DNA of 64,000 nucleotides from a bacterium (GCA_043756865.1 JAYUQG010000019.1:33772-97771), one strand, 5' to 3'; shown: positions 1 to 43,745, counted from the stretch's first letter. Numbers and translations are program-made. Notes: a model not told the origin generated them from the sequence alone.

Positions 1-192
1 TTACTAATCGTCGCTCTGCACGCCATACAAGTTTTTCTTGCTTCATACATTTCTGCGTTATTAATTTCTGCTAAATAACGAGAAAGCCCACTTCGTTAGA
101 AGTCTCAGGGAACCAACTGGTGATTCTCTCAGGCTTTCTTAACGAAATGGGCGCGGCACGATCGTGCGGTACTCATCCGTAATATTCAATTG

Positions 193-603
193 TTACTTCT
201 TACTATACCTCTTGTATTTCTGTTCGCGCATCTTGGAGGTGTGGATAAGTTGCGTCCGCTTTTGTCCTTCGACCTTCTTAATCTTTTCCGCCACGTCGGA
301 AGCAAGACTGAGGCTGAAATTCCCGTCGGGGGGCAGTATTACGATGTCGAACCCCCGTTTCCTTGCGTTTTCAAGTATTTTCTTTGGTATGAGGGTTTGA
401 AGCGGTATCCCAACCCCTTTTACGGGATCAAAAACCAGACTGCCAGGCTCTCCCGCCTTGGGAAGTGGCGCAAAGATCCGGGGGTATTCTTCTCCTTTTT
501 TCTCCGCATTGTCCATTGCCTTCACAATGTCTGTTGTTGGCTTTGCGGGCGACGAGTGAAGTTTGGGGTCCACGAGTTGTAGGTAAATTTTCTTTCGTTC
601 CAT
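193..603 (-). CDS. hypothetical basic protein (136 aa)
   Basis: ATG at 603 (rc). K/R-rich termini and balanced composition. Overlapping + strand ORFs (164-400, 190-582) look compositionally worse. No recognisable motif. Confidence 0.35.
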   Translation of the reverse strand: MERKKIYLQLVDPKLHSSPAKPTTDIVKAMDNAEKKGEEYPRIFAPLPKAGEPGSLVFDPVKGVGIPLQTLIPKKILENARKRGFDIVILPPDGNFSLSLASDVAEKIKKVEGQKRTQLIHTSKMREQKYKRYSKK

Positions 604-689
604 ACGCCTTACGCTAGCTAATATGCGGGGGAAAGTAAATGATATTTAGGTAATTGACGAGGGGTAAATTCGTTCTAGGATTTGAGATT

Positions 690-2003
690 ATGAAACACTT
701 AAAACCCGAGCAGTATTATATCGACCTTTATGACCGCCATACGGTAGAGCGGTGCCGTGGGGCAGAACGTTCGTATGCACGAACGGATGATCAACCACAG
801 GAGGAGGAAGGAGTGATCAAAGAAGAAGCAGGGCGCATGGAGAAAATGGTGAGAAAGTTATTTCTTCGCGCGGAAGCGGGAGAGCGATATCTCAATAAAT
901 CGAAGGCGATCCGTGAGTGGATGGATGCCGACAGAAATCGTGATGAATTGTTGGACTCCACACAAGCGCCCGAGGGTATCCGCTGTCTGACGTGTCGGAA
1001 TATTGTGAAGCCAACATTTAATGATCTCTGGCTTGCCACAGAAGACAAAAAACCCGAGCGGGTGCTGTTCATGTATGACTGTCCGAATGAATGTCTCCCG
1101 CGTCGTGCGTTTTTCTCCGATGGTGAGGAGTATCGCGTGAAGCCCGATCTTTGCCCGCGCTGTGATGTCCCGCTCGAAAAGAAGAGTGAGGATGACGGGA
1201 AGAAACTAACAACAACGCGCACCTGTCTGAAGTGTGGATACAGCGATACGGATGAATTCGAGTGGTCCTACAAGAAAGAGGATGAGTTCGATCCAAACTT
1301 TGCCGCCGATCGTGATCGCTTCTGCCTTACCACCGAGGAAGGTCAAAAATACTGGGAGGAAAAGTCTTGGTGGGAACGGATGGCGCAGTTTTCGGAAGAA
1401 ATTAAGAAGCAAAACGAAGATTGGGCGGCAAGGCTGGCAGCTAGCCCAAACGGCTTCATTCTCGAAGGTGTTGGTCGTACTTGTGCGATATGTGGCGATG
1501 GGTCTCGAGAAGGCGGTAGTTGGTACGATTCATACGGCTTGAAATGCTTTGTCTGCCAAAAGGCAATTGATGTCGGAGACATACCCGCCACGCTCGCAAA
1601 TGATAAGGAAAGTTGGTACAGCAAATATAATCTCGAAAGTGCGTTTAGTCTTAAGGGTCCAACTCTCAAGAAGTGGGTCAAGGATGGCGTTATCAAGTCC
1701 CGCGTCATTAGCTATTACGGTAAAGGTACTCATTGTGAGATCTTTCTCATCGAAGACAATAAGGGTTTTCTGCCTCCGAAGGAGATGGTTAAATCACATA
1801 GCGTAAGTGAGGTGAAGGATGTCAAGACTTGGCACCATTCGGAGCCATGGTATCGGTTCGTTGATCCGATGGAATATCTCAAGGACTATGGGATCATTAA
1901 GCATATGCGGGTCGTTCCGCCTGAGGAAATGGCGGCTCGGGAAGAGGAGAAGAAGCGGAAATGGGAGGAGAAACAGGAACGCAAAAAGCAAATGAAAAAG
2001 TGA
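690..2003 (+). CDS. multi-zinc-ribbon hypothetical protein with K/E-rich C-terminal tail
   Basis: ORF-track start 654 is TTG; first ATG (MKHLKPEQ) is at 690. Six Cys pairs (CLTC, CPNEC, CPRC, CLKC, CAIC, CFVC) form three predicted Zn ribbons. Tail reads EEEKKRKWEEKQERKKQMKK. Confidence 0.5.
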   Translation: MKHLKPEQYYIDLYDRHTVERCRGAERSYARTDDQPQEEEGVIKEEAGRMEKMVRKLFLRAEAGERYLNKSKAIREWMDADRNRDELLDSTQAPEGIRCLTCRNIVKPTFNDLWLATEDKKPERVLFMYDCPNECLPRRAFFSDGEEYRVKPDLCPRCDVPLEKKSEDDGKKLTTTRTCLKCGYSDTDEFEWSYKKEDEFDPNFAADRDRFCLTTEEGQKYWEEKSWWERMAQFSEEIKKQNEDWAARLAASPNGFILEGVGRTCAICGDGSREGGSWYDSYGLKCFVCQKAIDVGDIPATLANDKESWYSKYNLESAFSLKGPTLKKWVKDGVIKSRVISYYGKGTHCEIFLIEDNKGFLPPKEMVKSHSVSEVKDVKTWHHSEPWYRFVDPMEYLKDYGIIKHMRVVPPEEMAAREEEKKRKWEEKQERKKQMKK

Positions 2004-2075
2004 TACTTAAAAAATTGGTAACCATGTCATTGGACCACTTAACAGAGCCATATTTTGCGATTTTGATTAATGTGC

Positions 2076-2104
2076 TTGACAATTAGTAGCATATAGAATA
2101 CAAT
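2076..2104 (+). promoter_or_regulatory. sigma70-like promoter (TTGACA-17-TACAAT) upstream of the 2139-9606 gene string
   Basis: TTGACA at 2076-2081, 17-nt spacer, TACAAT at 2099-2104. About 35 nt upstream of the ATG at 2139. Confidence 0.45.
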
Positions 2105-2138
2105 CTTATATAAATATTACCAGTATTTATATAAAACT

Positions 2139-2816
2139 ATGAATAATGACAAAAGAGAAAGTTTCAAGCGACTCTCCCAATCCAGATTAGGAAAGATAAC
2201 AGATGCGCTTGATGTATTGGGTAACTGCTCGAATAAGAGTGCTTACGAGTACACAGAGGAGGATGTATCAGAAATTTTTGGCAAAATTGAGGAGAAAGTG
2301 CGCCAGACAAAATCAAGGTTCAAGCTAGAACCAGCTGTGCTTGTTCCTGGTGACAACAAATCTAAGACATGGAAGCAGCTTGCATCTAGTCTGAAGTCGC
2401 ATGGATCGTTGAATCATGCATTCTCTAAGACACAGTGGGGCCATCATTGCGTGCGGTTTTACATTAGAGACAGCATGTTTTGGATTACATGCTATACCGC
2501 GGATTTTAAAGATGCTGATAAGCGTAGATACGGAATATTTATCTCTTACCCAGGCTTTTTTCAGCGAAGCAATATGAGTGTCAGCCAAAAGGCAGCAGTT
2601 GATTCTTTGCAGTCGCTTTTGATTAAGAATGGCGACAAGATTAACAGTGTCCTGCCAGATGCCTATATTGCCGACAAAGATGCGGACGATGGAGAGTTGG
2701 CTGGATGGACTCGTGATCTAAGTGAGTTTCCATCAGATGAAGCGGCAATCGAATGGCTGAAATCAATGCTCGATACATATTCAGAACTTGTAGTCCCATT
2801 GATAAAAGAAGTTTAA
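2139..2816 (+). CDS. hypothetical protein (225 aa), first gene of the island operon
   Basis: ATG start. The stop is 13 nt before the next gene. No motif recognised. Confidence 0.5.
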   Translation: MNNDKRESFKRLSQSRLGKITDALDVLGNCSNKSAYEYTEEDVSEIFGKIEEKVRQTKSRFKLEPAVLVPGDNKSKTWKQLASSLKSHGSLNHAFSKTQWGHHCVRFYIRDSMFWITCYTADFKDADKRRYGIFISYPGFFQRSNMSVSQKAAVDSLQSLLIKNGDKINSVLPDAYIADKDADDGELAGWTRDLSEFPSDEAAIEWLKSMLDTYSELVVPLIKEV

Positions 2817-2829
2817 AATCTTTGGTTTC

Positions 2830-4338
2830 ATGAAATTAATATCTAAATCAAAGTTTCTTCAATATCTCGAGTGTCCAAAGGATACATGGTTTCTGCTGCA
2901 TATGCCGAACCTTCCGGAATTCGAGGTATCGACTTCTGAGCAAGGCATAATGGATCAGGGGAATGTCGTTGAAGAGTATGCAAAGAAGCTCAAAATATTT
3001 GCTGGGTATATTGAGGTCGAGAAACGGGGAAGAGAAGCAGATGAGGAAATTAGAAAACTTCTATCTCAAAAGGTTCCAGCCATATATCAACCCACCTTTG
3101 TTGCTGATGGATTTGTCATTCGTTGTGACTTCCTTGTGTGGAACAACAATGAAAGGAAGTGGGACCTGTATGAGGTGAAGGGCACTAATTCAAAAAAGGA
3201 TGAAGGGGGTCCACGGGACCACATCTCTGATATCGCATTTCAGGCAATCGTACTTGATCGCGCCGGTGTTTCCATTGGTAATAAATACATCGTCCATCTT
3301 AATAATGAGTATATTCGTGGCGACGAGTTGGATGTCGAACAGCTTTTTATTGTGAGCGACAGTACTGCTCAGGTAAAAGAAATGCTTGATGTTACTTCAG
3401 CACAAATGGAAAAGGCTAAAGAGTATCTCAATCAAGAAAATGAGCCGAAGGATGGTTGTGATTGTCATTTTAATGGTCGCAGTAGGCACTGCGACACGTT
3501 TGAGCGTTCACACCCCGAGATACCTGAATATTCCATACACGATATCTCGCGCATTGGGCTAAAGCCAGACAAGTTGATTCAGCTCATCACCGATGGAATT
3601 TATCATCTCGAGGATATCGACGACACATCAGATTTTAGTGTTATTCAGCAGAACCAAATTCATACCCACAAGACGAAGAAGGAAATTATTGATGTAAACG
3701 AGATTGCCAAGATTCTTGATGGTTATAAATATCCACTATACTTTTTTGATTACGAAACATTTGCGCCAGCGGTACCGATATACCCAGGATATGGAACATA
3801 TCGTCGTATCCCGATACAGTTCTCTTTGCACATCATAGACGAAAGGGGTGGTGCACTCCGTCACGTTGATTATGTACATACTGAAAACTCGGATCCATCT
3901 ATTTCAGTAGCCAAAATACTAGCTGATACGATTGATCCGAATGGCACTGTTCTTGCGTGGAATGTGGGGTTTGAAAAAGGTGTTACAAAAGAGCTTTCTG
4001 AACGCTTGCCGGAGTACAAAATTATACTCGATAGAATTTGTGATCAAATGCAGGATTTGCGTGATGTTTTTTCGAAACAACACTATGTGCATAAAGACTT
4101 TTGTGGGAGTTCAGGGGTGGGGGCTGTTATGGAGGCATTGTTGCCACATATGACATATGACCATCTGCCATATACGGGAAACGATGTTGGTTTCGTCTGG
4201 TGGAAGGATATTGTGAACGACGGAGCAAGTCCTGCTGATCGTGAAAAGAAGACGCACCTCATCCGTGAATACTGCAAACAAGATACTTTTGTAATGGTCG
4301 AAATCTTCCGTATCTTGAGTGATATTGCCAGAAATTAA
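2830..4338 (+). CDS. DUF2779-type nuclease-family protein (N-terminal PD-(D/E)xK / Cas4-RecB-like fold)
   Basis: N-terminus ISKSKFLQYLECPKDTWF resembles the DUF2779 family. A ..D..YEVKGT.. E-x-K motif is present, as is FFDYETFAPAVPIY. 502 aa. Confidence 0.6.
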   Translation: MKLISKSKFLQYLECPKDTWFLLHMPNLPEFEVSTSEQGIMDQGNVVEEYAKKLKIFAGYIEVEKRGREADEEIRKLLSQKVPAIYQPTFVADGFVIRCDFLVWNNNERKWDLYEVKGTNSKKDEGGPRDHISDIAFQAIVLDRAGVSIGNKYIVHLNNEYIRGDELDVEQLFIVSDSTAQVKEMLDVTSAQMEKAKEYLNQENEPKDGCDCHFNGRSRHCDTFERSHPEIPEYSIHDISRIGLKPDKLIQLITDGIYHLEDIDDTSDFSVIQQNQIHTHKTKKEIIDVNEIAKILDGYKYPLYFFDYETFAPAVPIYPGYGTYRRIPIQFSLHIIDERGGALRHVDYVHTENSDPSISVAKILADTIDPNGTVLAWNVGFEKGVTKELSERLPEYKIILDRICDQMQDLRDVFSKQHYVHKDFCGSSGVGAVMEALLPHMTYDHLPYTGNDVGFVWWKDIVNDGASPADREKKTHLIREYCKQDTFVMVEIFRILSDIARN

Positions 4339-4454
4339 TTTTGCTTTACGCCGATTAGTAATGGTTGTAGGGTAATGATTGCCGAGGGTGCATACGGGAG
4401 ATTGTCATGCATCGATCCCACTTGGCATAAAATGCAAAATATCAAAATAAATAT

Positions 4455-5666
4455 ATGAATGAAATTATTTGCCCAAATTGTAAAAAAGCTTTCAAGGTTG
4501 ACGAGACCGGATTTGCCGATATTTTAAAGCAAGTCCACGATCATGAGTTTGAAAAAGAACTAAATTCACGTGAGGAAATGCTAAAAAAAGATAAAGAAAA
4601 TGCAGTTAAACTCGCCGAGGCAAATATTACGAACTCACTGCAGAAAGACATTGCAAAGAAGGATGCTGAACTAGCCGAAATAAAATCCAAAATTAATAAC
4701 GCAGAGCTTGAGAAAAAACTTGCAGTCACTGAAGCGGTCAATAAAATTGAAAAAGAGCGCGATGAACTAGCTGGCGAGCTGAAAAGTAAAGATGCTGAGA
4801 AACAACTACTCGAGACATCACTAAAAGATAAATATACTACTGAGCTCAAGACCAAGGACGATATCATCAAGATGAAAGATGAGGAAATTGCTCTTCGTAA
4901 AGATATGAAGGTCAAGCTTTCAACAAAAATGATCGGTGAAACACTTGAACAACACTGCGAAACCGAGTTTAACAAACTTCGCGCAACTGGATTTCAGAAT
5001 TCGTATTTCGAAAAAGACAACGACGCAAAAACTGGCAGTAAGGGTGATTATATCTATCGCGAAACCGATGATGCTGGTAATGAAATCATTTCTATTATGT
5101 TTGAAATGAAAAACGAAGGCGATGAAACAGCTACCAAGAAAAAGAACGAAGACTTTTTACGCGAACTTGATAAGGATCGCGCCGAAAAAAAGTGTGAGTA
5201 TGCCGTTCTAGTTACACTTTTGGAATCTGAAAATGAGCTTTATAACACCGGCATTGTTGATGTTTCTCATAAATACCAAAAAATGTATGTAGTTCGACCA
5301 CAATTTTTCATTCCCATGATAACTCTACTACGCAACGCATCCATGAACTCGCTTAAGTATAAAGCCGAGCTTGCGGTGGTAAGGAATCAGAACATCGATA
5401 TCACCAACTTCGAGGAAAATATGAACAAGTTTAAAGATGGCTTTAAAAAAAATTATGAGCTTGCTTCAAGCCGATTTAAAATAGCAATCGATGAAATCGA
5501 CAAAACCATTGACCATCTTCAGAAAACCAAAGATGCGCTCCTGTCCTCTGAAAATAACCTTCGTCTAGCGAACAATAAAGCAGAATATCTGACAATCAAA
5601 AAACTGACGCATGCCAATCCTACAATGACTAAAATGTTCGCAGATATTACTGATGCAAGTGAATGA
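4455..5666 (+). CDS. DUF2130 family protein (N-terminal CxxC zinc ribbon, long coiled coil, globular C-terminus)
   Basis: [32 protein letters not shown] is a typical DUF2130 N-terminus. A K/E-rich heptad region follows. C-terminal segment [22 protein letters not shown] has a possible D...ExK motif. Confidence 0.65.
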
Positions 5667-5733
5667 GTACAACCTTTTGACGTTCGGTCGGTTGTATTAC
5701 ATGCAGATAATTAAATAGTGCTTTATCCAGAGT

Positions 5734-6540
5734 GTGGCGAGAGACTGGCTCAACGACCCACCGGCAACCCTCAGTAATGAGAAGGTGCCAACCAGCCCCG
5801 AAAGGGGAAAGATAAACGTCGAAACTCTTTCCTTTGTACGGATGGAGTTTTTATTATTTAGGTTCAAAAACATGAGATCAACAACTATCAGTCGTGAAGC
5901 GTACCTTGGCAGTAAAGAGGAGAAGGAAATTTATGAATTAGAGGAAATAGACAGCAACAAGTATCGGCTACTCGGACGTGCCACAGGGATTAGCATGGAT
6001 CACTGCGTACTCATCGGATCAAATCACAAAAAAGAATTCTGGCACAGAGTGTATGGATTTCAGATTATACAAAATGAAAAAACAGAGAGAGCACTGCTTG
6101 AGGCGGCGCGGAAGATCAAGCCAGAGACCGAGTCGTATGTGACCGTGCAATTCTATGAACGGCTTTCAGAAGAAAAGTATATGTTTATACCCAAGCGCCT
6201 GGAAATTGCTGACCGTCCTGAGTTAAGCAACTTTCCACTTAATATATTGTTCGGCACGGCATGTCTCACTGACAACAACAGACAAATATTCGAAACGTCA
6301 GAATATGTCCCCGACCTCACCACCTTTACAGAGGAAGGTGATGAGCAGAAGTTGCGCTACTACAATTCACTCGATAACACGCGATGCCACTCTGCAGAGA
6401 TTGTGTATAACACAAAAGACCAATCGTATGTCGGTACGAAGTATCGCGGTGATAAACATGCCGGCATGGCTTTTGGTAATGCGTGGGATCCGTTCTTTGT
6501 GCATTTCACAATGCTGGGAGTAGGGGTTAACATTGATTAG
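5734..6540 (+). CDS. hypothetical protein (start uncertain)
   Basis: ORF-track start 5734 is GTG. In-frame ATGs lie at 5842 (MEFLLF) and 5872 (MRSTT; AGGT 11 nt upstream). No motif recognised. The 5' 100 nt are unusually GC-rich. Confidence 0.4.
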   Translation: MARDWLNDPPATLSNEKVPTSPERGKINVETLSFVRMEFLLFRFKNMRSTTISREAYLGSKEEKEIYELEEIDSNKYRLLGRATGISMDHCVLIGSNHKKEFWHRVYGFQIIQNEKTERALLEAARKIKPETESYVTVQFYERLSEEKYMFIPKRLEIADRPELSNFPLNILFGTACLTDNNRQIFETSEYVPDLTTFTEEGDEQKLRYYNSLDNTRCHSAEIVYNTKDQSYVGTKYRGDKHAGMAFGNAWDPFFVHFTMLGVGVNID

Positions 6541-6554
6541 ACTGAGATTCAACA

Positions 6555-6851
6555 ATGAAACCCACAACACCCCAAACCATTTCTCCTGCCAAGATGACGT
6601 TTGCCGTAGAGGCAAACTACGCGTCTTCGGGTTGGAAGACTCTGGTATTCAATTGCTATTGCCATACGCTGTTTGAGGCCGCCGAGGCAATTGGGACAGC
6701 AACACACTGTTCAGTAGCAGAATCAATCCGCTTGGCAGGCGTTGCCGAAACAACTGGCCAAGCAATCGTCATGGAAGGATCAGAATTTGAATGTGAGACA
6801 GCTGCCGGGGTGATTCGCGGCCGTGGACTTACCTCGCTCGCAACGACTTAG
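6555..6851 (+). CDS. small hypothetical protein (98 aa)
   Basis: ATG ORF filling the gap between flanking genes. GC is higher than its surroundings, so it could instead be structured RNA. Confidence 0.3.
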   Translation: MKPTTPQTISPAKMTFAVEANYASSGWKTLVFNCYCHTLFEAAEAIGTATHCSVAESIRLAGVAETTGQAIVMEGSEFECETAAGVIRGRGLTSLATT

Positions 6852-6960
6852 CTTAAATCATGCACCATGTCTAATCTTGGCTAATCTGCAATTGCACTCT
6901 TGCCAAAAATCAGAAAATAAGCATAACAATATATGTATTTTCATGTAGTATTCAAGATAT

Positions 6961-9606
6961 ATGATTATCAAGGGCATATGTCACAGGTGTCATAATTATG
7001 GGGATATCCAGCCGAACGGATATACCATGGAGGGTATTTGTGAAAATTGTATCAAGGGCGCCCAGCGCGAAAAAATACAAGAGCAGGAAAGGGTAGATAA
7101 AGAGCGACAAGAAAGAATTATCGCCGCTCTTGCACCAGCACAAGCTCTCCTGTCAGGTGGGAATATCATCGGCGCAGACCAGGTTGCTCTTGAGCAAGGA
7201 TCGGACGAATTGCTTGATGAATACGAAAAAATTAAGTCTAAGTATATACAAAAGGATTTACGAAACTTGGAGAAAGAACTCGAGGTGGGTGAAGGATATT
7301 TTGACGATGAAAAGGCCGTTGCTCTTTCTAAAACAGGAAAAAATATCCTTGTTCAAGCGCGAGCTGGTTCGGGGAAGACGACTGCAATAGCGTTGCGAGT
7401 GCGCCACCTAATTAAATTTTACGGTGCGAAGCCCGAAGAAATACTCATTCTTGCATTTAACAGGAAGGCAGCAGAAGAGTTTCGACTACGAATCAATAGC
7501 TACTTCAAAGGATCAAATCAAATTGCTACGGAATCTAACACACTAACATTCCATGCTCTCGCGCGTAGAATAGCAAATACTACAAAGAACATATTGCAGG
7601 ATGAGAGCAGGGATGGGAGCGAGGAGGGACGACATGGTGAAGACAAGAAGTTACAGATTGATTTTGTGCGAGAATGTTTTAATAAGGTAGAAAAAGAAGG
7701 ACATGGTCTTATCGAAAAACTTTTCTATCTATTTTTAAAATCGGCGTCTGAAAAAATTGGTGGCTTATTTAGAAACAGCGAGGACTACTATCTATATTTA
7801 CGAAACCTACAACACGTAACGATAGCTGGAGAGATTGTTAAGTCAAGAGGGGAGAAGTATATTGCCGATTTTCTATTCGAGCATCGAGTTACAAAAAATG
7901 GAAGGGAAATTGAATATGCATATGAGCGCAACATTAAAAAGAATATTAATGCAACTCGTCCATATAGCCCCGACTTCTCACTATTTTTTGTTGAAGATGA
8001 GGAGAAATTAGACCTTCAGGCCGTTGTCGAATTCTTTGGTTTTACCGAAAGTTATCCTGGGTACCCCGGGTTTTTTGAATCGCGGGCTGCGTCCAGGTCA
8101 TATCTAAACGAAGCAGAGCAAAAAAGAATATTATTTCGAGATAAGGACATGAAGCTGGTTGAAATGAACGCCAATGACCTGACATCTTCTGCAGATGTTA
8201 AATTAGAAAATAAGGAAGACGCAAACCGGCAGTGGTTTGAGGAAATCCTTCGACAGCGACTTACGCGGTCTGGTTTCGATATTTCTAAAGAGTGCCTAAG
8301 TATTAAGGAAATACTTGCAAAAATTCCCAAGGTGGAAAGAAGAAAAAAAGCATTGGTAAAACAAATAACGCAATTCATTAACAAGGCTCAAAAAATATCT
8401 TACGATCCGGATACGATCAGAACAATTGCGGGAAAAGAGAAGGAAAACGGAAGATTGAGTAAGCGCACAGAGTATTTTATTAAAATGGCATGTCGAGTAT
8501 ATGAGGAATATCATTCCAGACTGGAGAAGGAGCCGTTCACTGACTTCGACGGACTTCTTGTTGATGCAATAAAGAGAATTAAAAATGAAGGTAGCGTCTG
8601 CAAGATATTGCCCAAGGGAGGAAAGGGAGAGTCCCAAGATATAGGAAACATAAAATACATACTTATTGACGAGTACCAGGACTTTTCGAAATTATTTTGC
8701 GAGCTTATTGATGCAATCAGAACAAATAATCCACAAGTTTCATTTTTTTGTGTCGGAGATGATTGGCAGGCTATCAATGCATTTGCGGGCTCAGATTTAG
8801 AATATTTTGATAACTTTGAAAAATATTTTGTTGGCGGCCGTCGAACAAAGTTGCTGACGAACTATCGTAGTTGTGCACACATAATCGAGCATGCTAATTG
8901 TCTAATGAGGGGCAGGGGTGATGATGGAAAACCACAAGCACAAAAAGCTTTCGGTAGAGTGTATCTCATGTCGTTGCTTTGGGTTGAGAACAGACGGGAT
9001 CAAGAATATGAAGCAGAGTTTTTAGAAGATGAAAAATATAGGTCGGCTGCAAAGTTGCTTCTGGGACTTGAGGATGCTGATAAAGCAGCCCCATTTGAAC
9101 TTGTCTCTTACTTAAAAACCGTCGAGAAGGTTGTAAATGATTTGCCGTCGGATAAAAACATCTGCCTACTATTTCGTGGCAACCACATTCGTGGGTCCGA
9201 AATAACCAAATTCACAGAACAAATCCGTGCATGGACATCAGGTAATAAAAATAGAGTCATATGTTCGACGGCCCATGGATTTAAGGGAAAGGAATGCGAC
9301 GCAATCGTTGTGGTTGATGCAAACCATAGAAGTTATCCAAAGTTTCATCCCGACAATGAGCTAATGGAAATACTCGGCGTAACGTTGTCGAAGGTGATAG
9401 ACGAGGAGCGTCGCCTATTCTATGTGGCAATTACGAGAGCAAAGGAAAGTTTATATTTGCTATATGACAACGGTGCGACGGTTGGTATATCGGATTTTAT
9501 TGGAGAAATTGAAAAAGGTGGCTGGAATTATGAGTTAATGTCATCACGTGGCTCAAGTAAGAAGCTAGACGAGGAGCTAGATATGGGTGATGAAATTGCC
9601 TTTTAA
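6961..9606 (+). CDS. SF1 UvrD/PcrA-like DNA helicase with N-terminal zinc ribbon and large 1B-region insertion
   Basis: N-terminal CHRCHNYG..CENC. Walker A AGSGKTT. Motif II YILIDEYQDF, motif III VGDDWQAINAFAGS, motif IV NYRS, motif V TAHGFKGKECD, motif VI FYVAITRAKESLYL. About 400 aa inserted between motifs Ia and II. Confidence 0.8.
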   Translation: MIIKGICHRCHNYGDIQPNGYTMEGICENCIKGAQREKIQEQERVDKERQERIIAALAPAQALLSGGNIIGADQVALEQGSDELLDEYEKIKSKYIQKDLRNLEKELEVGEGYFDDEKAVALSKTGKNILVQARAGSGKTTAIALRVRHLIKFYGAKPEEILILAFNRKAAEEFRLRINSYFKGSNQIATESNTLTFHALARRIANTTKNILQDESRDGSEEGRHGEDKKLQIDFVRECFNKVEKEGHGLIEKLFYLFLKSASEKIGGLFRNSEDYYLYLRNLQHVTIAGEIVKSRGEKYIADFLFEHRVTKNGREIEYAYERNIKKNINATRPYSPDFSLFFVEDEEKLDLQAVVEFFGFTESYPGYPGFFESRAASRSYLNEAEQKRILFRDKDMKLVEMNANDLTSSADVKLENKEDANRQWFEEILRQRLTRSGFDISKECLSIKEILAKIPKVERRKKALVKQITQFINKAQKISYDPDTIRTIAGKEKENGRLSKRTEYFIKMACRVYEEYHSRLEKEPFTDFDGLLVDAIKRIKNEGSVCKILPKGGKGESQDIGNIKYILIDEYQDFSKLFCELIDAIRTNNPQVSFFCVGDDWQAINAFAGSDLEYFDNFEKYFVGGRRTKLLTNYRSCAHIIEHANCLMRGRGDDGKPQAQKAFGRVYLMSLLWVENRRDQEYEAEFLEDEKYRSAAKLLLGLEDADKAAPFELVSYLKTVEKVVNDLPSDKNICLLFRGNHIRGSEITKFTEQIRAWTSGNKNRVICSTAHGFKGKECDAIVVVDANHRSYPKFHPDNELMEILGVTLSKVIDEERRLFYVAITRAKESLYLLYDNGATVGISDFIGEIEKGGWNYELMSSRGSSKKLDEELDMGDEIAF

Positions 9607-9809
9607 GTGACACTCGCCGATCTCATTCCTGTGTCACTTTTGTCACTTTTTCAACGTGCCCGAGACCCTTCGTTGTGATAATCTGAAACTAGGCGATTCG
9701 GCCAAGGTGGGCTTGGCCGACCACGGTTCTAGCTCGAGACGGCCAGCCAAGTTATAGTGAAATGAGGTAACCTCTTGAATTGTTAGCTGGAGGCAGATAA
9801 TATACTGAT

Positions 9810-10904
9810 ATGAATTATACTCGTATTGCTTTTGCTGCATTGTTCATATTTATTATTCTCGTTGTATTTTTTTATTCTAATTATGAATCAAAAGCACCTT
9901 ATGTTGTCCACTCCGGCGACGGCATGGCAGAGCTCCGCATCCCACATGACGCGGTGCTCACGGGTGGAACACTTGCGGACATAAAGATGAGCGCCATTTC
10001 ACCTGCAGAGTTCTTCGCAGAGAGTAATCAACCCACCAACAGCGCAAAGGTGTACAAGCTTGAGCCAAATGGTCTCTCGTTCTCTAAGCCCGCGACAATC
10101 GTGGTGACTTATCCATATGATGCAAAGAAATCATATGCCCCAGTATTTCTCACACATGCAGATAATGGGAGTAGTGTAACTAGCCTCGATATCACCGACG
10201 CACAAGTCGATGAAGCAGGAAAGACAATGACTATTTCGGGCGAACTGAGCCACTTCACTATATTTGTTTCAAACCCCGAACCGCACATATTTGTCGCCAC
10301 CACTCTGCCTGAAGGCAAACTGACAAAATCGATAGGTGAGTCGTTCATACACACACTGCTCGTCACTCCCGGAAAGTGGGAATACACGAATCATCCAAGC
10401 CGGCTCGACCCGAACTATACCGTACGTGTCACCCTAGAAATTGGAAATGGTACGAGATGGAATATGAACAATGATTATCGCAGTCCACACATAATTCGCA
10501 CATCAGGAAGGATGGTGCCAGCGGAAGTGGTGCGCGAGCCAGCTAACCTTGCGGCAGTTGAGGCGTATCGTTTGTCGACCACATTTACATGTCAGACGGA
10601 GGGAGAAGACGCCGCATTTGTAATGGGAGGTGCATGGTTCACGTATACGCTCCAGCTTACTGCGGTTGATTCGGTAAGCAATAGGCCACGTGTTGAACGT
10701 GACAAACGGCTTGGATGGGTTTTACCTCCCACTAACCCGCAAGTGACGTGTATTGCAGGTGCATCGGAGGTTGCCACTACTACGGTCGGGGTCACGGGCG
10801 CAAACGTCAACACGAACGCTACCACCCCCGTTACTCCAAAAAAACCTACGGGAGTAATCACTGTATGTGGACTGCCGGGTGGGCCTGCATGCCCCAAGCG
10901 CTAA
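9810..10904 (+). CDS. membrane-anchored/secreted hypothetical protein
   Basis: N-terminal hydrophobic segment IAFAALFIFIILVVFFY. GGAGG sits 18 nt upstream. Cys-containing C-terminus. Confidence 0.5.
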   Translation: MNYTRIAFAALFIFIILVVFFYSNYESKAPYVVHSGDGMAELRIPHDAVLTGGTLADIKMSAISPAEFFAESNQPTNSAKVYKLEPNGLSFSKPATIVVTYPYDAKKSYAPVFLTHADNGSSVTSLDITDAQVDEAGKTMTISGELSHFTIFVSNPEPHIFVATTLPEGKLTKSIGESFIHTLLVTPGKWEYTNHPSRLDPNYTVRVTLEIGNGTRWNMNNDYRSPHIIRTSGRMVPAEVVREPANLAAVEAYRLSTTFTCQTEGEDAAFVMGGAWFTYTLQLTAVDSVSNRPRVERDKRLGWVLPPTNPQVTCIAGASEVATTTVGVTGANVNTNATTPVTPKKPTGVITVCGLPGGPACPKR

Positions 10905-10994
10905 AAACAATCACTGCAGGAAACAGAAATTACTAAATACATACAGTGCGTCTAAAAAGTACACAAACAAACTAGTACGTGTAAGAATACTAAA

Positions 10995-12260
10995 ATGATG
11001 AAATATATAATTATTGCTCTTGGTGCCGGGATGCTCGGCTACGCACAAGTGAGTATTGCGACAACTGCGGGCTCTGAGATAAAAATCGCTGCTCCTGCGA
11101 GTATCGCAATAATGATGCCACCGGAGATTAGTCTGGCAATCAATGGGGTGGCAGGAAAACCTTTTATTCTTGATGGCACAAAAAGTCAGGATGATGGAGG
11201 TGTGCGTAAATTTCTTTGGGTACAAACCGAAGGTCCTATAGTTCTACTCCCTGACGCAACAGCAGTGAAACTGTTCGTCACTCCGCCACGAGGAGGTACG
11301 TACGTGTTCGATCTTCAGGCGACAGACGCAATTGGCCTCATGACCACAGTACAGCGAGTAAAAGTTGTCGTTGGTGACCCCGATTTCGACCTCATTAAGG
11401 CAAGCCCTCCGCCACCCCCTACACCCACGACTAGTGTTGTGGCAAATCCGCTCTATGAAGACAAAAGTCAGAGTGGGGTAAATCCTGTGTATCAGTCTAG
11501 AGAAATGACAGTCGCACCCACACCTTCTGTTGTAAAACCAAGACCAATGGGTGACTCCGATTCTGATCTTTTAAACAAGATAACCCCGCCACCCTCGCGT
11601 CCCATTAATGACCCCGACCGCGATGGGTATCCAGATGTCATGACCGGCAAAGCGCCCGTGACCCCTCCCATATCCGGTGACCCTGATTTTGACCAGCTCA
11701 ACATTCAGTTCGATGAAGATGCCGACAATGACGGCATACCTTCAATGGACGAAGATATTTTAGAAAACGCAAAGGTGACAGTGCGTGGGTGGGACTTCGA
11801 GAAAAAGGAAGTTATTGCGGCACATCCTGAGCTCGTGAGAAGCTCGGGGGATTTACGAGTATATGCAGAAGCAGTGACTATCGACAACCTGCAAATTACG
11901 AAAGTAAAGATCGACAAGTCCACAATTAAGGTTGACGCAATTGAAAAAGGGAAATTGTTTTGGTTTATACCCGTAGACATGAATTCACAAATCGTCATAA
12001 AGCACGATGATACGTCACCCTCGGAAGACACCGTCACCGTGGATTTGCCATGGTGGAGCATTTTCGTCGACGACGATGTTGATACCGCAGCAATCGAGAG
12101 TGCGGTCACACTTGAACTCGCGGCAACACCGCAGATTGGAGTAGCCACTGGAGAAATAGGGGTTACGCTCACTCGTGTTTCCCGAGTACTCAACAGTCTT
12201 TCGAACGTGCTCAAAACTAAACACGATACAGTCAAGAATTCAATCAACAACGTACGCTAA
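10995..12260 (+). CDS. secreted protein with Ig/PKD-like N-domain and Pro-rich GDPDFD-repeat linker
   Basis: Signal-like MMKYIIIALGAGMLGYA. Repeated VGDPDFDLI / SGDPDFDQL motifs. PPPPPTPTT linker. Confidence 0.5.
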   Translation: MMKYIIIALGAGMLGYAQVSIATTAGSEIKIAAPASIAIMMPPEISLAINGVAGKPFILDGTKSQDDGGVRKFLWVQTEGPIVLLPDATAVKLFVTPPRGGTYVFDLQATDAIGLMTTVQRVKVVVGDPDFDLIKASPPPPPTPTTSVVANPLYEDKSQSGVNPVYQSREMTVAPTPSVVKPRPMGDSDSDLLNKITPPPSRPINDPDRDGYPDVMTGKAPVTPPISGDPDFDQLNIQFDEDADNDGIPSMDEDILENAKVTVRGWDFEKKEVIAAHPELVRSSGDLRVYAEAVTIDNLQITKVKIDKSTIKVDAIEKGKLFWFIPVDMNSQIVIKHDDTSPSEDTVTVDLPWWSIFVDDDVDTAAIESAVTLELAATPQIGVATGEIGVTLTRVSRVLNSLSNVLKTKHDTVKNSINNVR

Positions 12261-12290
12261 TGGCTAGTTGAGTATTAGCCATGCTGCGTT

Positions 12291-12319
12291 TTGTGAGCAT
12301 GAGATAGGCAGTGTATAAT
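12291..12319 (+). promoter_or_regulatory. sigma70-like promoter (TTGTGA-17-TATAAT, TG-extended) for cupin gene
   Basis: TTGTGA at 12291-12296. TATAAT at 12314-12319, preceded by TG. Confidence 0.4.
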
Positions 12320-12326
12320 AGGCGTC

Positions 12327-12722
12327 ATGAAGGGATTTCACACAAACATTGAGACGGAAACGCTGGAGAATTTACACTTTCGCAAAGTGCTTTACACTGG
12401 TACACACATGCAACTCGTGCTTATGACACTCAAGAAAGGTGAGGAGATAGGTTTCGAGGTGCACGCTGATAATGACCAGTTTTTTCGCTTTGAATCTGGC
12501 AGCGGTAAGGTAATTATCGACGACACTGAGTATTCTGTGAGTGATGGTGCGGCGGTTATTATCCCTGCAGGGGCGAAGCATAATGTGGTAAATACGGGAA
12601 CTGATGAGTTGCGGATGTATACGTTATACGCACCTCCGCATCACAAGGACGGGATAGTGCGAATCACAAAAGAAGAAGCTGAAGCGCACGAGGAGGATTT
12701 TGATGGCAGGGCGACTGAGTAG
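12327..12722 (+). CDS. cupin domain protein
   Basis: G(x)5HxH-like core: ..GFEVHADNDQFFRFESGSGKV..IIPAGAKHNVVNTG. 131 aa. Confidence 0.65.
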   Translation: MKGFHTNIETETLENLHFRKVLYTGTHMQLVLMTLKKGEEIGFEVHADNDQFFRFESGSGKVIIDDTEYSVSDGAAVIIPAGAKHNVVNTGTDELRMYTLYAPPHHKDGIVRITKEEAEAHEEDFDGRATE

Positions 12723-12773
12723 GGGGCACAGCACTTCTTGAATCCTGCAGATAGTTTGAGCTATACTAAACGC

Positions 12774-13343
12774 ATGAAACACATACGCCGCATTCATTTG
12801 TCTCTATTATCAGCATTTCGCGCATGGATTCCTCTTGCTGTTGCTATTACGGGAATATTTATCGCCCTCTATTGCACGGGGCAATTTATACTCCGCTCTC
12901 TCGCAAACGAAGAACAGGTGCGTATTAGCGCTGACGTGGTGCGTTACCTCGAAGGAGGAGGAGATCCAATGGCGCTAAACAGCCCCATGCCCACCGATAT
13001 CGGAACAGGTCTTGCACCATATATCATTTTTTACTCACTTGATCTAAGGGCGATGGCAGGCTCTGGTCTTCTAGACAACGAAAGCCCCGTACTGCCACGT
13101 GGAGTGTATGAGTTCACAAAAAAATGGGGTGAGCACCGCCTCACATGGCAGCCAAAACCCGATGTGCGTCACGCTGTGCTTATGCGCCATCTTGATACAC
13201 CCACCGCTGGATATTTATTGGTAGGTAAATCGCTAAAAGAAACTGAGCGTACAATTTGTGTACTCTGGAGCATCCTGAGCGCCTTGTGGGCACTGACAAT
13301 GCTCTTGTCTTTGTTGGCAACGGCAATTATCAAAAAGCCGTAA
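12774..13343 (+). CDS. hypothetical membrane protein
   Basis: ORF-track start 12738 is TTG; first ATG at 12774 (MKHIRR). Two predicted TM segments. Confidence 0.4.
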   Translation: MKHIRRIHLSLLSAFRAWIPLAVAITGIFIALYCTGQFILRSLANEEQVRISADVVRYLEGGGDPMALNSPMPTDIGTGLAPYIIFYSLDLRAMAGSGLLDNESPVLPRGVYEFTKKWGEHRLTWQPKPDVRHAVLMRHLDTPTAGYLLVGKSLKETERTICVLWSILSALWALTMLLSLLATAIIKKP

Positions 13344-13389
13344 GTAATAAACGAAGGATAGCAAAACGGCCACACCTGTGGCCGTTTTG

Positions 13390-14082
13390 CTATTTTGGTG
13401 TTGTAGTCGCCTTCGTGCTTGTCGCTCTGAGTGCGGTCAACTCGGGGATAAGTTGCTCGATTTCCTCCCGAGACTTGAAGCCGTAATAGGGTTTTCTGTT
13501 CACAATAAGTACGGGGAACCGGTCCTCAAGTTTATAGATGGATTTGAGTGTCTCAATAACGGATAGTCCGAGATTGTAGTCGAACGCATACACATGAAGG
13601 GTCTCATAATCCTCGCGCATTGAGGTAAGTACGTAACCCATTTTTGTACAATCATCACAGTCGCCCTCATTGGAGTAGAAATAGATAATGCTTAGCGGAT
13701 TAGCATTACACTGCTTCGTCCGTTCGCGTAACAGCAGATAGTCTTTGATTTGCAGTAGTGAGTAATACTTTTTTAGACTGATAACCTCAGGATCGTCCGC
13801 ACCACGCTGGTCCTCCATATACGCAAGCCGTTTCGCGAGCATGTTTATCTCATTAATGAGAATGGGGTTGCCGCTTTCATCCATCTCGCAAGATACATCG
13901 GCAAGAAGTGCGTACTGAATTTCTGACTCTAATATATTGAGATTGATGTTGTCCTCGATGTTTTTTACCTGTGAAAGGCGTTGCTGATACAGGTAATCCG
14001 AAAAAAGAAAAATAATAGCAAAAATGCCCAGTGTTATAAAAAAAACGAGAATGTATTTTTTTGTATTCAAATCTTGTTGCAT
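13390..14082 (-). CDS. membrane-anchored hypothetical protein with CxxC (CDDC) motif, possibly thioredoxin-like
   Basis: ATG at 14082 (rc). N-terminal TM KKYILVFFITLGIFAIIFLF. GDCDDC motif. Confidence 0.45.
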   Translation of the reverse strand: MQQDLNTKKYILVFFITLGIFAIIFLFSDYLYQQRLSQVKNIEDNINLNILESEIQYALLADVSCEMDESGNPILINEINMLAKRLAYMEDQRGADDPEVISLKKYYSLLQIKDYLLLRERTKQCNANPLSIIYFYSNEGDCDDCTKMGYVLTSMREDYETLHVYAFDYNLGLSVIETLKSIYKLEDRFPVLIVNRKPYYGFKSREEIEQLIPELTALRATSTKATTTPK

Positions 14083-14105
14083 GTTGGATGAATATGGAAT
14101 GAAGA

Positions 14106-15356
14106 TTATCTCCAGCCCGCTTCTTTGGCGGTTATGAGGTTATAAAGTGAGCGCGCAAGCCAGAACGGTGCGATAAGGCCATAAAGTAACACAAAATAGA
14201 GCATATCACGAGAAAACGTAAGTCTCTTTACCGCCATGCGTGTGCCCATTACCATAAAGAAAATAGTAGCAAAAAACAAGCTATAGACGATTAACCTTTT
14301 GAATTCAAGGTTAAGCGCAAACCAGTCGAAGTTCGGCAGGCCAAAATTGAAATGAAATCCTATAGCACTGTATTGTAAGTACTTTTCGTAAAAAAGAATA
14401 AATAGATTCTTAATATATAGTGCACAGAAAAAGAGAGCGATAAATATCGAGAAAAATGCAAAGGGGAGCGTAAGCAGACCCAGATTACCGTACTTGCGGT
14501 TAAAGAACATGAAACGATACTGGAAAAGTGCATTTTTTAGGAAGCCCGTTACCCAACGTACACGTTGTGTGTAAAGCGCGCGCGGCGTGGGGGGGGAGAC
14601 CGTATACACGAGCGCAGTGTGCGAATTCTCAATCTTCATACGATGAGACTGCATGCGCAGTGCCATTTCCATGTCCTCGGTGCTGTATCCATGCACAAAA
14701 CCTCCAATTTTCTCAAAAACGGACCGGCGGTAGATAGAAAAGGGGCCAGGTGTAACATAGAGCCCATTAATCCTGCTAAACACCTTGCGTGTAAACTCTC
14801 CTATCATGTACTCAGTAGACTGAATCCTGCGAAGAACGTTGTCGGGATTATGAATTTGCACAGATGGGGTTACTGCCATAACCTCTGCGTCGTCAAAGTA
14901 TGGGATAATTTCGATTAGGGCCTGATTATCCACGTACGAATCAGCATCAAGACACCCGACGAGGTCACTTGTGGTGTGCGTCAGACCCAGATTCATGGCC
15001 GTATATTTACCTCCATTCTCTTTTGTAAAGACTCGAATTTGGGGGTGTCCATCAAATCGCCTTGCTACCTGCAGAGTGTTGTCTGTAGAGCCATCGTCTA
15101 TGATGTAGATGAAAAGACGGTCTTTGGGGTACTCAAGTGCCAGCAGTGAGTCAACAGTACCAAGTATGGTTTCTCCCTCATTCCAAGCGGGAACCATAAT
15201 GGTGACACTGGGGTATTTTCCGGGCATGCGTTGCTTTCTGGTTGCCGAATGTTCAAATCTTTCCTTGTCTTCAAAATACGTGACAAGCAGAAAAACCTCA
15301 AAATACATGATAAGGAAGAGTAATCCATAGACAGGTAGGGAAAAAAGTTGCTCCAT
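14106..15356 (-). CDS. processive family-2 glycosyltransferase (cellulose/chitin/hyaluronan-synthase-like, membrane integrated)
   Basis: VTIMVPAWNEGE, IIDDGSTDNT, CLDADSYVDN (DxD), QRVRWVTG (QxxRW). Multiple TM helices at both ends. ORF-track start 15458 is TTG; ATG for MEQLF at 15356. Confidence 0.8.
   Translation of the reverse strand: MEQLFSLPVYGLLFLIMYFEVFLLVTYFEDKERFEHSATRKQRMPGKYPSVTIMVPAWNEGETILGTVDSLLALEYPKDRLFIYIIDDGSTDNTLQVARRFDGHPQIRVFTKENGGKYTAMNLGLTHTTSDLVGCLDADSYVDNQALIEIIPYFDDAEVMAVTPSVQIHNPDNVLRRIQSTEYMIGEFTRKVFSRINGLYVTPGPFSIYRRSVFEKIGGFVHGYSTEDMEMALRMQSHRMKIENSHTALVYTVSPPTPRALYTQRVRWVTGFLKNALFQYRFMFFNRKYGNLGLLTLPFAFFSIFIALFFCALYIKNLFILFYEKYLQYSAIGFHFNFGLPNFDWFALNLEFKRLIVYSLFFATIFFMVMGTRMAVKRLTFSRDMLYFVLLYGLIAPFWLARSLYNLITAKEAGWR
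14589..14596. repeat. G8/C8 homopolymer inside the GT2 synthase gene
   Basis: gtGGGGGGGGag read directly; encodes SPPTP on the minus strand. Confidence 0.9.
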
Positions 15357-15715
15357 ATTCTTACAAAAATACCCCGATTTTTCAGGGCTTATGGCAATCC
15401 TAATCCCAAAAGAGCTATAAGTAAAGGCATTTATTGGCAAATACAACCCCATCTTCAATCAGTGCATTTTGGTGAAAATAGACTGAAATCCATTTTGAGC
15501 CTTATTTACCAACAGAAAACGTCAAATTAGATATATTCGATGGGAAATGTCAAATTAAGTTTTAGCAAAAAAAAATCTCTTAAAAAAAATGACCAGATTT
15601 TTAATTGCAATAATACGTTGTATAATATAGCTATTTTCGAGTGTGGAGAATTAGAGTTGCCCCAAAAAGACATGTGGGTACAATGGCTTGGTATTCAAAA
15701 CTGTGCCCAAAGTGA

Positions 15716-15744
15716 TTGACTATATCGGTTAATCATGATATAAT
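15716..15744 (+). promoter_or_regulatory. consensus sigma70 promoter (TTGACT-17-TATAAT) for lytic transglycosylase gene
   Basis: TTGACT at 15716-15721, 17-nt spacer, TATAAT at 15739-15744. 40 nt upstream of ATG 15785. Confidence 0.55.
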
Positions 15745-15784
15745 AAATTTTACGCAGAACTTCAGCTAATACCATCTCCCAAAC

Positions 15785-16513
15785 ATGCAAACCTACAATA
15801 ACCAAGGTGAATCCATCGGTGAACCGACGGGGTCAAAGCGACCCCTTGCCATCAGCATGGGACTATTGGTGCTTCTTGCCACGATTGTCCCACAATCAGC
15901 TCTCGCAGCCACCACATATCTCAGAAACAACGCTGAGCAGTTTGTCGATAGGACAGAGGAGAGATACGGGGAAATGATTGATGTAGCGGGATTGCTGCAT
16001 GATTATGACACAAAGATGATTATTGCGGTCATTATTGTAGAATCTGAGGGAAAGGAGAAGGCCGTATCCCACAAAGGTGCGCAAGGGCTTATGCAGCTTA
16101 TGCCCGGGACGGCTAAGGCCATGGGGGCAAAAGATCCCAAAGAACCCTTTCAAAATATCCTTGCGGGGACAAAGTACCTCAAAGAACTTGAGCGTATTTA
16201 CGGCTTTGATTCCAAGCAAGAGGCGCTTGTGGCATACAACATGGGTCCAACGCGGGCAAAGCGCTGGTTATCTGAATACGATGCAAAAGACTACGGTTAT
16301 GTAAAAAAAGTTATGTACGTGCATGGCTTACTCGAGGCACGAGAACTTGAGGATAAACGCGTGGCGGAAGTAACCGCACAAAAGATGGCAATAGCTGAGC
16401 TGTATGCAATTGGCACGAAGCCCATGATGACCAAGCCAAGAAGTCTTTCACTCACAGAGTTGAACGCCACACTTTCCCGAAAAGAGATACTGCAGAGCGA
16501 AGCGGCGAAATAA
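15785..16513 (+). CDS. lytic transglycosylase (SLT domain), secreted
   Basis: IVESEGKEKAVSHKGAQGLMQLMPGTA ... AYNMG (E-S / GLMQ / AYN SLT motifs). N-terminal signal. Confidence 0.8.
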   Translation: MQTYNNQGESIGEPTGSKRPLAISMGLLVLLATIVPQSALAATTYLRNNAEQFVDRTEERYGEMIDVAGLLHDYDTKMIIAVIIVESEGKEKAVSHKGAQGLMQLMPGTAKAMGAKDPKEPFQNILAGTKYLKELERIYGFDSKQEALVAYNMGPTRAKRWLSEYDAKDYGYVKKVMYVHGLLEARELEDKRVAEVTAQKMAIAELYAIGTKPMMTKPRSLSLTELNATLSRKEILQSEAAK

Positions 16514-43415: not shown

Positions 43416-43488
43416 GGGCCGTTAGCTCATCTGGTAGAGCACCGCATTTGCAATGCGGGGGTGGCAGGTTCGAGTCCTGTACGGTCCA
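43416..43488 (+). tRNA. tRNA-Ala (anticodon TGC)
   Basis: Cloverleaf by eye: acceptor GGGCCGT/ACGGTCC, D-arm GCTC..GAGC, anticodon arm CCGCA-TTTGCAA-TGCGG, T-arm GCAGG-TTCGAGT-CCTGT, discriminator A. No encoded CCA. Confidence 0.85.
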
Positions 43489-43496
43489 CAAGCGTC

Positions 43497-43523: not shown

Positions 43524-43745
43524 CGCTTGTGGACCGTAGCAAGCTAACTGCTTGGCTTGCGTAAGGACTCGAAAGGCTTTGCGATGTTTATGAAGCATTC
43601 TGATGCTGAATAAACCGCAAAGGCATACAGTCCTCGTAGAGGAAGAGTCATGTGTAATTGCTTGTCGAGATTTCTTTGCAGCAAAAGCGTAGTAGATTTT
43701 TGTTGAGGCGCAAATATAAAACGCCCACCAGCGTCTTATTATTTG

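Follow-up and report, generated by a model that had tools for sequence, protein, structure and literature searches.

The stretch of bacterial DNA analyzed here (GCA_043756865.1, JAYUQG010000019.1:33772-97771; 64,000 nucleotides, called the window in the following) carries near its left end a block of seven co-directional genes, g1 to g7 in their order. An original prediction had proposed this block as a candidate for a single undescribed anti-phage defense or DNA-processing system. The host appears to belong to the Patescibacteria (candidate phyla radiation, CPR), which are ultra-small bacteria, as judged from named homologs in Uhrbacteria, Kuenenbacteria, Moranbacteria and Andersenbacteria. 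The contigs and assemblies that were compared with the window bear L-numbers. One of them, L124, stems from the same organism, its position 5547 being equal to position 1 of the window. The following features were found at the left end of the window, where ORF denotes an open reading frame, GC the G+C fraction, SF1 superfamily 1 and SAM S-adenosylmethionine:

1-46 (-): 5' part of a ParB-N6/N4 DNA methyltransferase gene (overlap with L124; phrog_498, 2e-75)
193-603 (-): ORF of 136 aa with host-like composition (ORF call and GC)
690-2003 (+): g1, CPR-specific protein bearing three Zn ribbons and ending in a Lys/Glu-rich tail; GC 0.490 (motifs, homologs)
2076-2104 (+): sigma-70-like promoter match TTGACA-17-TACAAT 5' of g2 (11 of 12 consensus positions)
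2139-2816 (+): g2, 225 aa, first gene of the AT-rich g2-g3-g4 cassette, GC 0.422 (no family match)
2830-4338 (+): g3, DUF2779 protein with an N-terminal Cas4-like PD-(D/E)xK domain and a C-terminal DEDDy-type 3'-5' exonuclease domain (Pfam, PADLOC, motifs)
4455-5666 (+): g4, DUF2130 protein; CPNC knuckle, coiled coil of about 110 residues and PD-(D/E)xK core D198, E217-x-K219 (Pfam, motifs)
5720-5818 (+): SAM-I (S-box) riboswitch aptamer (Rfam RF00162, 64.1 bits, E = 1e-12)
5803-5860 (+): predicted expression platform, antiterminator 5803-5812/5826-5835 versus terminator hairpin 5821-5851, then a U-rich tract (folding)
5872-6540 (+): g5, 222 aa, founding member of a two-domain family restricted to CPR, predicted SAM-OFF control (start codons of homologs)
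6555-6851 (+): g6, 98 aa, 14-bp gap after g5 (95% identity in L140)
6852-9605 (+): g7 cassette (gene 6961-9606), SF1 UvrD helicase similar to helicase IV, Zn ribbon at the N-terminus (Pfam, NCBIfam, indel relative to a sister strain)
9607-9717 (+): backbone DNA after the g7 insertion (match to the sister strain)

ORF calling reproduced the predicted co-directional reading frames at 654/690-2003, 2139-2816, 2830-4338, 4455-5666, 6555-6851 and 6961-9606. The frame that had been proposed at 5734-6540 exists as well, but its presumed GTG start codon falls inside the SAM-I riboswitch. The real start is the ATG at 5872, since all 24 aligned g5 homologs start there, and g4 and g5 are therefore not separated by a short spacer, as had been assumed, but by 205 bp of regulatory RNA.

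The match to RF00162 covers the full model (positions 1-108) and lies well above the gathering score of 44.4 bits. Folding predicts an antiterminator consisting of a 10-bp helix (-8.9 kcal/mol) and a terminator hairpin of -11.5 kcal/mol; since the antiterminator draws on the 3' part of the aptamer and on the 5' arm of the terminator, both structures are mutually exclusive. In 38 of 45 loci with g5 relatives, which were gathered from metagenomes and assemblies, an aptamer that reaches the gathering score directly precedes the gene on its strand. Of the seven misses, three concern contigs that break off within 150 nt upstream of the match, and a fourth is a hit below threshold; without the three truncated contigs, the count is 38 of 42. 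Among 29 aligned aptamers, 9 of the 20 predicted pairs have undergone double changes by which pairing is maintained, and at least 19 of 27 loci have, 3' of the aptamer, a terminator-like stem (CUCUUUCC...GGAAAGAG) with a U-run. A sufficient covariance score, compensatory changes and a terminator/antiterminator platform, by which a SAM-I riboswitch is recognized, are all present. In two loci (L005 2373-3906 and L006 9116-10648), one SAM riboswitch is followed by tandem paralogs, namely a copy consisting of the C-terminal domain only and then a full-length g5 relative.

In Firmicutes, S-box leaders precede genes of methionine, cysteine and SAM metabolism. The leader of g5 resembles these attenuation leaders in its full aptamer, in its predicted platform of mutually exclusive antiterminator and terminator and in the OFF logic at high SAM, which we infer from the structure and from knowledge of the riboswitch family. 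It differs from them in its CPR host and in the controlled gene, which does not encode any of the enzymes or transporters known for methionine, cysteine or SAM. According to this logic, binding of SAM would lead to formation of the terminator 5821-5851 and stop transcription, whereas scarcity of SAM would allow the antiterminator 5803-5812/5826-5835 to form, so that read-through would result in the expression of g5 and g6. A full-text search of the literature gave no paper that connects SAM riboswitches with CPR genes, and the papers that deal with riboswitches and Patescibacteria describe no such link.

The block had been described as AT-rich. Measured against the 37 other genes of the window (mean GC 0.479, standard deviation 0.028), this description suits g2 (0.422), g3 (0.419), g4 (0.373) and g7 (0.408), but not g1 (0.490), g5 and g6 (0.522), which are host-like. 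For g5 (GC at third codon positions, GC3, of 0.489) and g6, both GC3 and the codon adaptation index (CAI) are host-like; for g7 the CAI is low too (z = -2.3). The lowest GC of the block belongs to g4 (z = -3.9), which from its unameliorated composition looks recently acquired in this window. The near-consensus promoter proposed at 2076-2104 was found again and scores higher than any other sigma-70-like match within the first 10 kb. As a class, these matches are barely enriched (28 observed versus 20.3 +/- 5.5 expected), and the promoter and terminator rules applied are those of E. coli and Bacillus, which may not be those of CPR bacteria, so this promoter is to be read as a consensus match only.

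The comparison with a sister strain (contig L140, only 4.6 kb long), whose g5 and g6 are 93% and 95% identical to those of the window, divides the block further. The similarity of L140 to the window (92% nucleotide identity) is confined to 5691-6832, with riboswitch, g5 and g6, and, about 34 bp later, to 9606-9717, which in the window lies behind the stop codon of g7; in L140, this backbone DNA resumes some 34 bp past the g6 stop codon. This pattern indicates that g7 together with its upstream region (approximately 6852-9605) is a discrete indel. To the left of 5691, L140 carries genes for a RecQ-like helicase and DprA in place of g2-g4, and g7 is absent. The DprA of the sister strain has no match in the window or in L124, and its RecQ-like helicase has only a weak match (27%) at 31.5 kb. 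L137, with an 83%-identical g5, differs again upstream, where its cassette encodes a C5 methylase and an SNF2 helicase. The boundaries coincide with the compositional breaks. Directly behind the g7 insertion, at 9607-9650, GTGACAC...GTGTCAC forms an inverted repeat with a T-run 3' of it. The element is 92% conserved with the sister strain, where it lies 3' of g6; this hairpin is probably the original terminator of g5-g6, displaced by the insertion of g7. The intergenic region 9590-9830 gave no Rfam match at E <= 1, and its folding is no better than that of shuffled sequences.

Leftward of the window, L124 (1019-5592) carries the methylase gene followed by genes for TerS, TerL and a large serine integrase, which form a phage-derived module (phrog_498, 2e-75; phrog_4044, 2e-12; phrog_38, 5e-76; and phrog_95, 2e-56, respectively). 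The combination of integrase and packaging genes that marks a prophage or satellite is hence present according to the PHROG matches. Capsid, portal and tail genes were not seen in L124 and in the window up to 16 kb, the left boundary lying beyond the available sequence. The ORF at 193-603 had no family match in searches that included the PHROGs. The four-gene module recurs without capsid genes beside riboswitch and g5 in L002, L030, L032 and L137 (partly in the last three), and also beside helicase homologs in L131 and L133. It may represent a satellite-like or decayed family of phage elements, defined by ParB-methylase, TerS, TerL and serine integrase, in several CPR lineages.

Taken together, the anatomy of the locus, its composition, the indels and the absence of conserved synteny make it very probable that the region from 0.65 to 9.6 kb is a strain-variable hotspot of separately and horizontally acquired solo nuclease and helicase genes, which lie around a native S-box operon and beside a phage-derived module. 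The hotspot would have been assembled from at least four independently inherited pieces: the host-like Zn-ribbon gene g1, the AT-rich g2-g3-g4 cassette behind the promoter-like site at 2076-2104, the native S-box operon, and g7 as an AT-rich single-gene insertion that would encode a helicase-nuclease fusion. The nucleases and the helicase, whose activities are predicted from motifs, most likely work singly as DNA-processing or defense-type enzymes and not as subunits of one machine. The idea of a defense island can be retained insofar as foreign genes for nucleic acid enzymes (g2-g4 and g7) occupy a region that varies between strains and adjoins phage-derived genes; the idea of one multi-gene system cannot. 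With defense islands, hotspots and phage satellites the locus shares variable nuclease, helicase and methylase cassettes at one site and an adjoining integrase and TerS. It differs from them in that TerL is also present, that no capsid genes were seen in the range given above and no helper phage was identified, and that its conserved anchor is a riboswitch-controlled operon. The case also calls for caution, as scans of a single sequence may take a co-directional patchwork of nuclease and helicase genes for a new defense system, a matter that comparison with a sister strain settles.

Several properties that had been predicted for the individual proteins were recovered. In g1, motif inspection shows the three Zn ribbons and the basic tail, with CxxC pairs at residues 99, 131, 155, 179, 265 and 286. 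Genes for g1 homologs (30-37% identity) lie close to those of g5 relatives in L002 and L024; in L153, they have DUF2779 and DUF2130 genes in their vicinity. The match of g2 to an ORF of L133 is limited to the N-terminal 56 aa. No family of Pfam, NCBIfam, PADLOC or PHROG was matched by g1, g2, g5 or g6.

The assignment of g3 to DUF2779 (PF11074; E = 1e-33, 116.8 bits versus a gathering score of 23.3) and its E-V-K core (D100...E115-V-K117) hold. The nuclease part combines this D...ExK motif with Cys ligands, four of which are present (C15, C210, C212 and C221), and is matched by the Cas4 model of PADLOC (3.8e-6). The C-terminal DEDD exonuclease part contains the motifs FDYET at residue 306 and Y481-x3-D485. 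The score of g3 with the NCBIfam model UU173_fam is 41.3 bits, below the cutoff of 225 bits, and an identity as CRISPR-Cas4 was rejected in membership tests. DUF2779 has been described as a fusion of a Cas4-like and a DEDD nuclease that is quasi-essential in the minimal Mycoplasma JCVI-syn3.0 (PMC13621843; for DUF2779 see also PMC3985635). g3 shares the two-domain architecture and the catalytic D...ExK and DEDD(y) motifs with DUF2779/UU173 proteins such as MMSYN1_0389 of JCVI-syn3.0 (PMC13621843). Unlike MMSYN1_0389, which has two Fe-S-type cysteines, g3 retains all four, and it is an AT-rich, strain-variable gene and not a fixed core gene.

Likewise, g4 belongs to DUF2130 (PF09903; E = 1.5e-88, 296.8 bits versus a gathering score of 26.7), and the CPNC knuckle, the coiled coil and the D198...E217-M-K219 core noted before are present. 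This family (COG4487) has been catalogued as a PD-(D/E)xK family without assigned function, and g4 has the D198/E217-x-K219 core in common with the catalogue entry (PMC3424549). D198, E217 and K219 are invariant across 29 DUF2130 sequences. An AlphaFold2 model of DUF2130 built from a 29-sequence alignment with 85-91% identity is poor (predicted local distance difference test score, pLDDT, 52.6 overall and below 50 for residues 126-323).

For g7, the UvrD-helicase domain (Pfam, E = 1.4e-39; 136.9 versus a cutoff of 23) and an own Zn ribbon (CHRC...CENC) could be verified. The large insertion, in contrast, is not special to this protein but family-wide (787 matches at E <= 1e-20), and since non-CPR members with 31-36% identity align over approximately 90% of the length, it is ancestral. 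The SF1 motifs are GSGKT at 136, DEYQD at 570, TNYRS at 633 and ERRLFYVA at 816. The best matches are the NCBIfam helicase IV model (7e-54), GajB of PADLOC (1e-38) and a PHROG family of phage DNA helicases (7e-67). The insertion in subdomain 1B conserves the pattern S295-x-G-E-K...D303-F-L...Y319-x-Y-E...P337-D-F...E357-x-x-G360, from which we infer a putative PD-(D/E)xK/Vsr/DUF559-like nuclease module at residues ~281-389; in Pfam, the insertion gives only a weak match to TnsA_N (E = 0.04). g7 carries the SF1 motor motifs like E. coli HelD and GajB but, unlike these, has an N-terminal Zn ribbon and the conserved PD-(D/E)xK/Vsr-like module in its 1B insertion. An identity as DNA helicase IV (HelD) equivalog was rejected, since the score of 183.4 bits lies below the cutoff of 543 bits, and g7 reaches no other equivalog cutoff either. 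Gabija was rejected as well, since GajB-type matches were obtained for g7 only, and GajA, the OLD-family ATPase-TOPRIM nuclease that Gabija requires besides GajB, gave no match among g1-g7. A 59%-identical homolog of g7 is encoded among RecA, S6-SSB-S18 and EF-P genes. A single-sequence scan of low sensitivity found no g7 relatives on viral contigs; DUF2779 was found on two.

The neighborhood of DUF2130 was surveyed in 80 species-representative genomes (L044-L123) out of more than 8000 homologs. These genomes span CPR, Bacteroidota, Proteobacteria, Firmicutes, Actinobacteria and Spirochaetes, and their DUF2130 proteins are 55-86% identical to g4. No conserved partner emerged, as no cluster of neighboring genes occurs in more than 4 of the 80 loci; the recurrent neighbors (up to 4 loci) are methylases, subunits of type I restriction-modification systems, DUF262-HNH proteins and WYL proteins. 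DUF2779 and a UvrD-like helicase lie near DUF2130 in one of the 80 loci only (L111), as determined by tblastn and purpose-built profile hidden Markov models. A CPR copy of DUF2130 with 91% identity has other neighbors, with a different helicase upstream. The GC of the DUF2130 gene tracks that of the host (r = 0.87 over 78 genomes), with GC3 ranging from 0.23 to 0.75. Since identity across phyla is extreme while GC follows the host, strong purifying selection and not only recent transfer is indicated. DUF2130 is also present on 23 viral or prophage contigs of IMG/VR. The protein may be a solo nuclease that is under housekeeping-level constraint and yet horizontally mobile. New for DUF2130 are the lack of a conserved partner, the 55-86% identity across phyla with host-tracking GC and the occurrence on viral and prophage contigs. 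The unusual combination of patchy distribution, missing partner gene and cross-phylum identity makes this family a third lead from the locus. In L153 (4417-7071), the DUF2130 gene begins 13 bp past a SMODS+AGS_C gene, which encodes a nucleotide cyclase of the type found in cyclic-oligonucleotide-based anti-phage signaling systems (CBASS); there, DUF2130 might serve as an effector.

These data can be set against the assumption that g1-g7 form one undescribed anti-phage or DNA-processing system that is co-transcribed from the promoter at 2076. Co-direction and tight spacing of the genes, the nuclease, coiled-coil and helicase hallmarks of their products and the recurrence of the DUF2779/DUF2130/helicase trio in L111 speak for such a system, as does the fact that known systems do not match: PADLOC assigns none to the block, in line with the original prediction, and reports only generic GajB and weak Cas4 matches. 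However, the riboswitch with its own terminator splits the block and makes g5-g6 a separate SAM-regulated unit, the composition is a mosaic, and the sister strain keeps g5-g6 without g7 and g2-g4. In addition, DUF2130 has no conserved partner in the 80 genomes, the neighbors of g5 relatives vary, and DUF2779 is already described as a quasi-essential nuclease fusion in a minimal Mycoplasma (PMC13621843). Homologs of the seven genes are largely not neighbors elsewhere; components adjoining each other across unrelated genomes, as expected of any single system, are limited to the isolated cases L111, L131 and L153. A single system is therefore highly improbable. Nevertheless, some observations do not sit easily with a hotspot of solo genes either. 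L111 (Limnohabitans sp. Jir72), the sole non-CPR recurrence of the trio, encodes on one strand of 5859-16299 a DUF2779 protein (728 aa), an SNase, a DUF2130 protein, a UvrD helicase with Zn_ribbon_Top1 and an SRAP peptidase. In L153, genes for DUF2779, a g1-like Zn-ribbon protein, LexA, SMODS-AGS_C and DUF2130 lie together, and in L009, L135 and L136 DUF2779 is found upstream of riboswitch and g5, with differing intervening genes. Moreover, L131/L132 encode a 57%-identical helicase with DUF2779 directly upstream. A degree of functional cooperation, above all of DUF2779 with the helicase, is possible, although recurrent but non-obligate pairings are what is expected of island-type genes.

In an alternative reading, g3 and g7 would be a functional pair for AddAB-like end resection or degradation of foreign DNA, with g4 and the S-box operon lying between them by chance. 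Besides the adjacency in L131/L132, the closeness of the two genes in the window and in L111 would fit this view, and in L136 a very large UvrD/AAA_11/AAA_12/DUF559 helicase is encoded directly upstream of the DUF2779 gene. Both proteins have predicted nuclease folds of the RecB/Cas4 or Vsr type, and DUF2779 is quasi-essential in a genome that is said to lack such machinery (PMC13621843). We nevertheless regard the pair as unlikely, since helicase homologs occur without DUF2779 in L128 and L133 and DUF2779 without the helicase in L009 and L135, neither gene is present at the site of the sister strain, and g7 came as a separate single-gene indel. Similarly doubtful is that the whole block, including riboswitch and g5, belongs to the cargo of an integrative element of phage origin (a satellite or decayed prophage), in which g5 would be an accessory or defense gene triggered by SAM depletion. 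The recurrence of the four-gene module described above agrees with this proposal, and so do the DNA methylases, which are frequent near g5 relatives, and the fusions of the g5 core to TPR, DSP-PTPase and HD_4 domains and its pairing with HD_4 proteins. On the other hand, the g5 family has no member in the 2.9 million contigs of IMG/VR, capsid, portal and tail genes were not seen in the range given above, and the boundaries of such an element are undefined. Because g5 of L134 stands among aminoacyl-tRNA synthetase and glycolysis genes, and because the GC3 and CAI of g5-g6 are those of the host, we treat g5-g6 as a chromosomal anchor and not as phage cargo. A strain-variable hotspot around this anchor thus accounts best for the locus.

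The g5 family itself is remarkably confined. All its named members are from CPR bacteria (Uhrbacteria and Kuenenbacteria), and a profile search of 1.84 billion representatives yielded 424 clusters at 50% identity. Most members consist of the C-terminal domain alone (125-160 aa). The core is a beta-rich domain of approximately 115 aa with about 20 invariant residues; a few proteins have it fused to TPR, CpXC, DSP-PTPase or (weakly) HD_4 domains, and both domains, N-terminal and C-terminal, each also occur as separate small proteins. The structure model of g5 is confident, but no relative of the predicted structure was found in the PDB, nor is there a Pfam or NCBIfam relative. Small HD_4 proteins (RelA/SpoT-type hydrolases) are encoded directly 3' of a g5-like gene in L017 (556-1149), L039 (963-1508), L040 and L041, and in the protein P0315 a weak N-terminal HD_4 match (E = 0.0086, below the cutoff) is fused to the g5 core domain. 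g6 is predicted to be co-transcribed with g5. It has no homolog beyond the sister strain and only a weak ClpS-like match (E = 0.019); a kinship with the small ORFs upstream of helicase homologs was rejected, since these are unrelated.

The predicted control of the g5 family by an S-box is new. Since S-box-controlled genes usually have such a role, g5 is probably a small-molecule-binding protein or an enzyme of methionine/SAM homeostasis. It may supply these auxotrophic episymbionts with a missing part of their methionine/SAM scavenging. It may also be an alarm effector that responds to a collapse of SAM, for instance upon attack by a phage SAM lyase or when nearby methylases fail to protect the genome. 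As a tentative but quite plausible extension, we propose that the g5 family constitutes an unrecognized, SAM-starvation-induced class of CPR proteins with a fold absent among solved structures, and that DUF2130 is a mobile solo nuclease with the constraint of a housekeeping gene. To our knowledge, few regulatory circuits of CPR bacteria have been characterized. A SAM-I OFF switch that is tied tightly and almost exclusively to one protein family offers a defined ligand and regulatory logic, together with a protein that is small and soluble, and could therefore serve as a handle on CPR physiology.

Some minor observations were made elsewhere. In the housekeeping part of the window, two divergent tRNA-Ala genes, an anticodon TGC/GGC pair at 43416-43489 (+) and 43745-43818 (-), lie with approximately 250 bp between them. 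The ORF at 44460-44969 (169 aa) has the lowest GC in that part (0.392; GC3 0.329) and may be another foreign gene. LOOT RNA (RF03000) is not found in the window but scores well over the gathering threshold in L028 (10436-10562), L029 (24-144), L032 (1478-1596), L133 (1703-1821) and L137 (7782-7913). In these CPR loci, g5 relatives or the phage-like module are present as well, and two of the matches sit 100-150 nt downstream of a g5-like gene.

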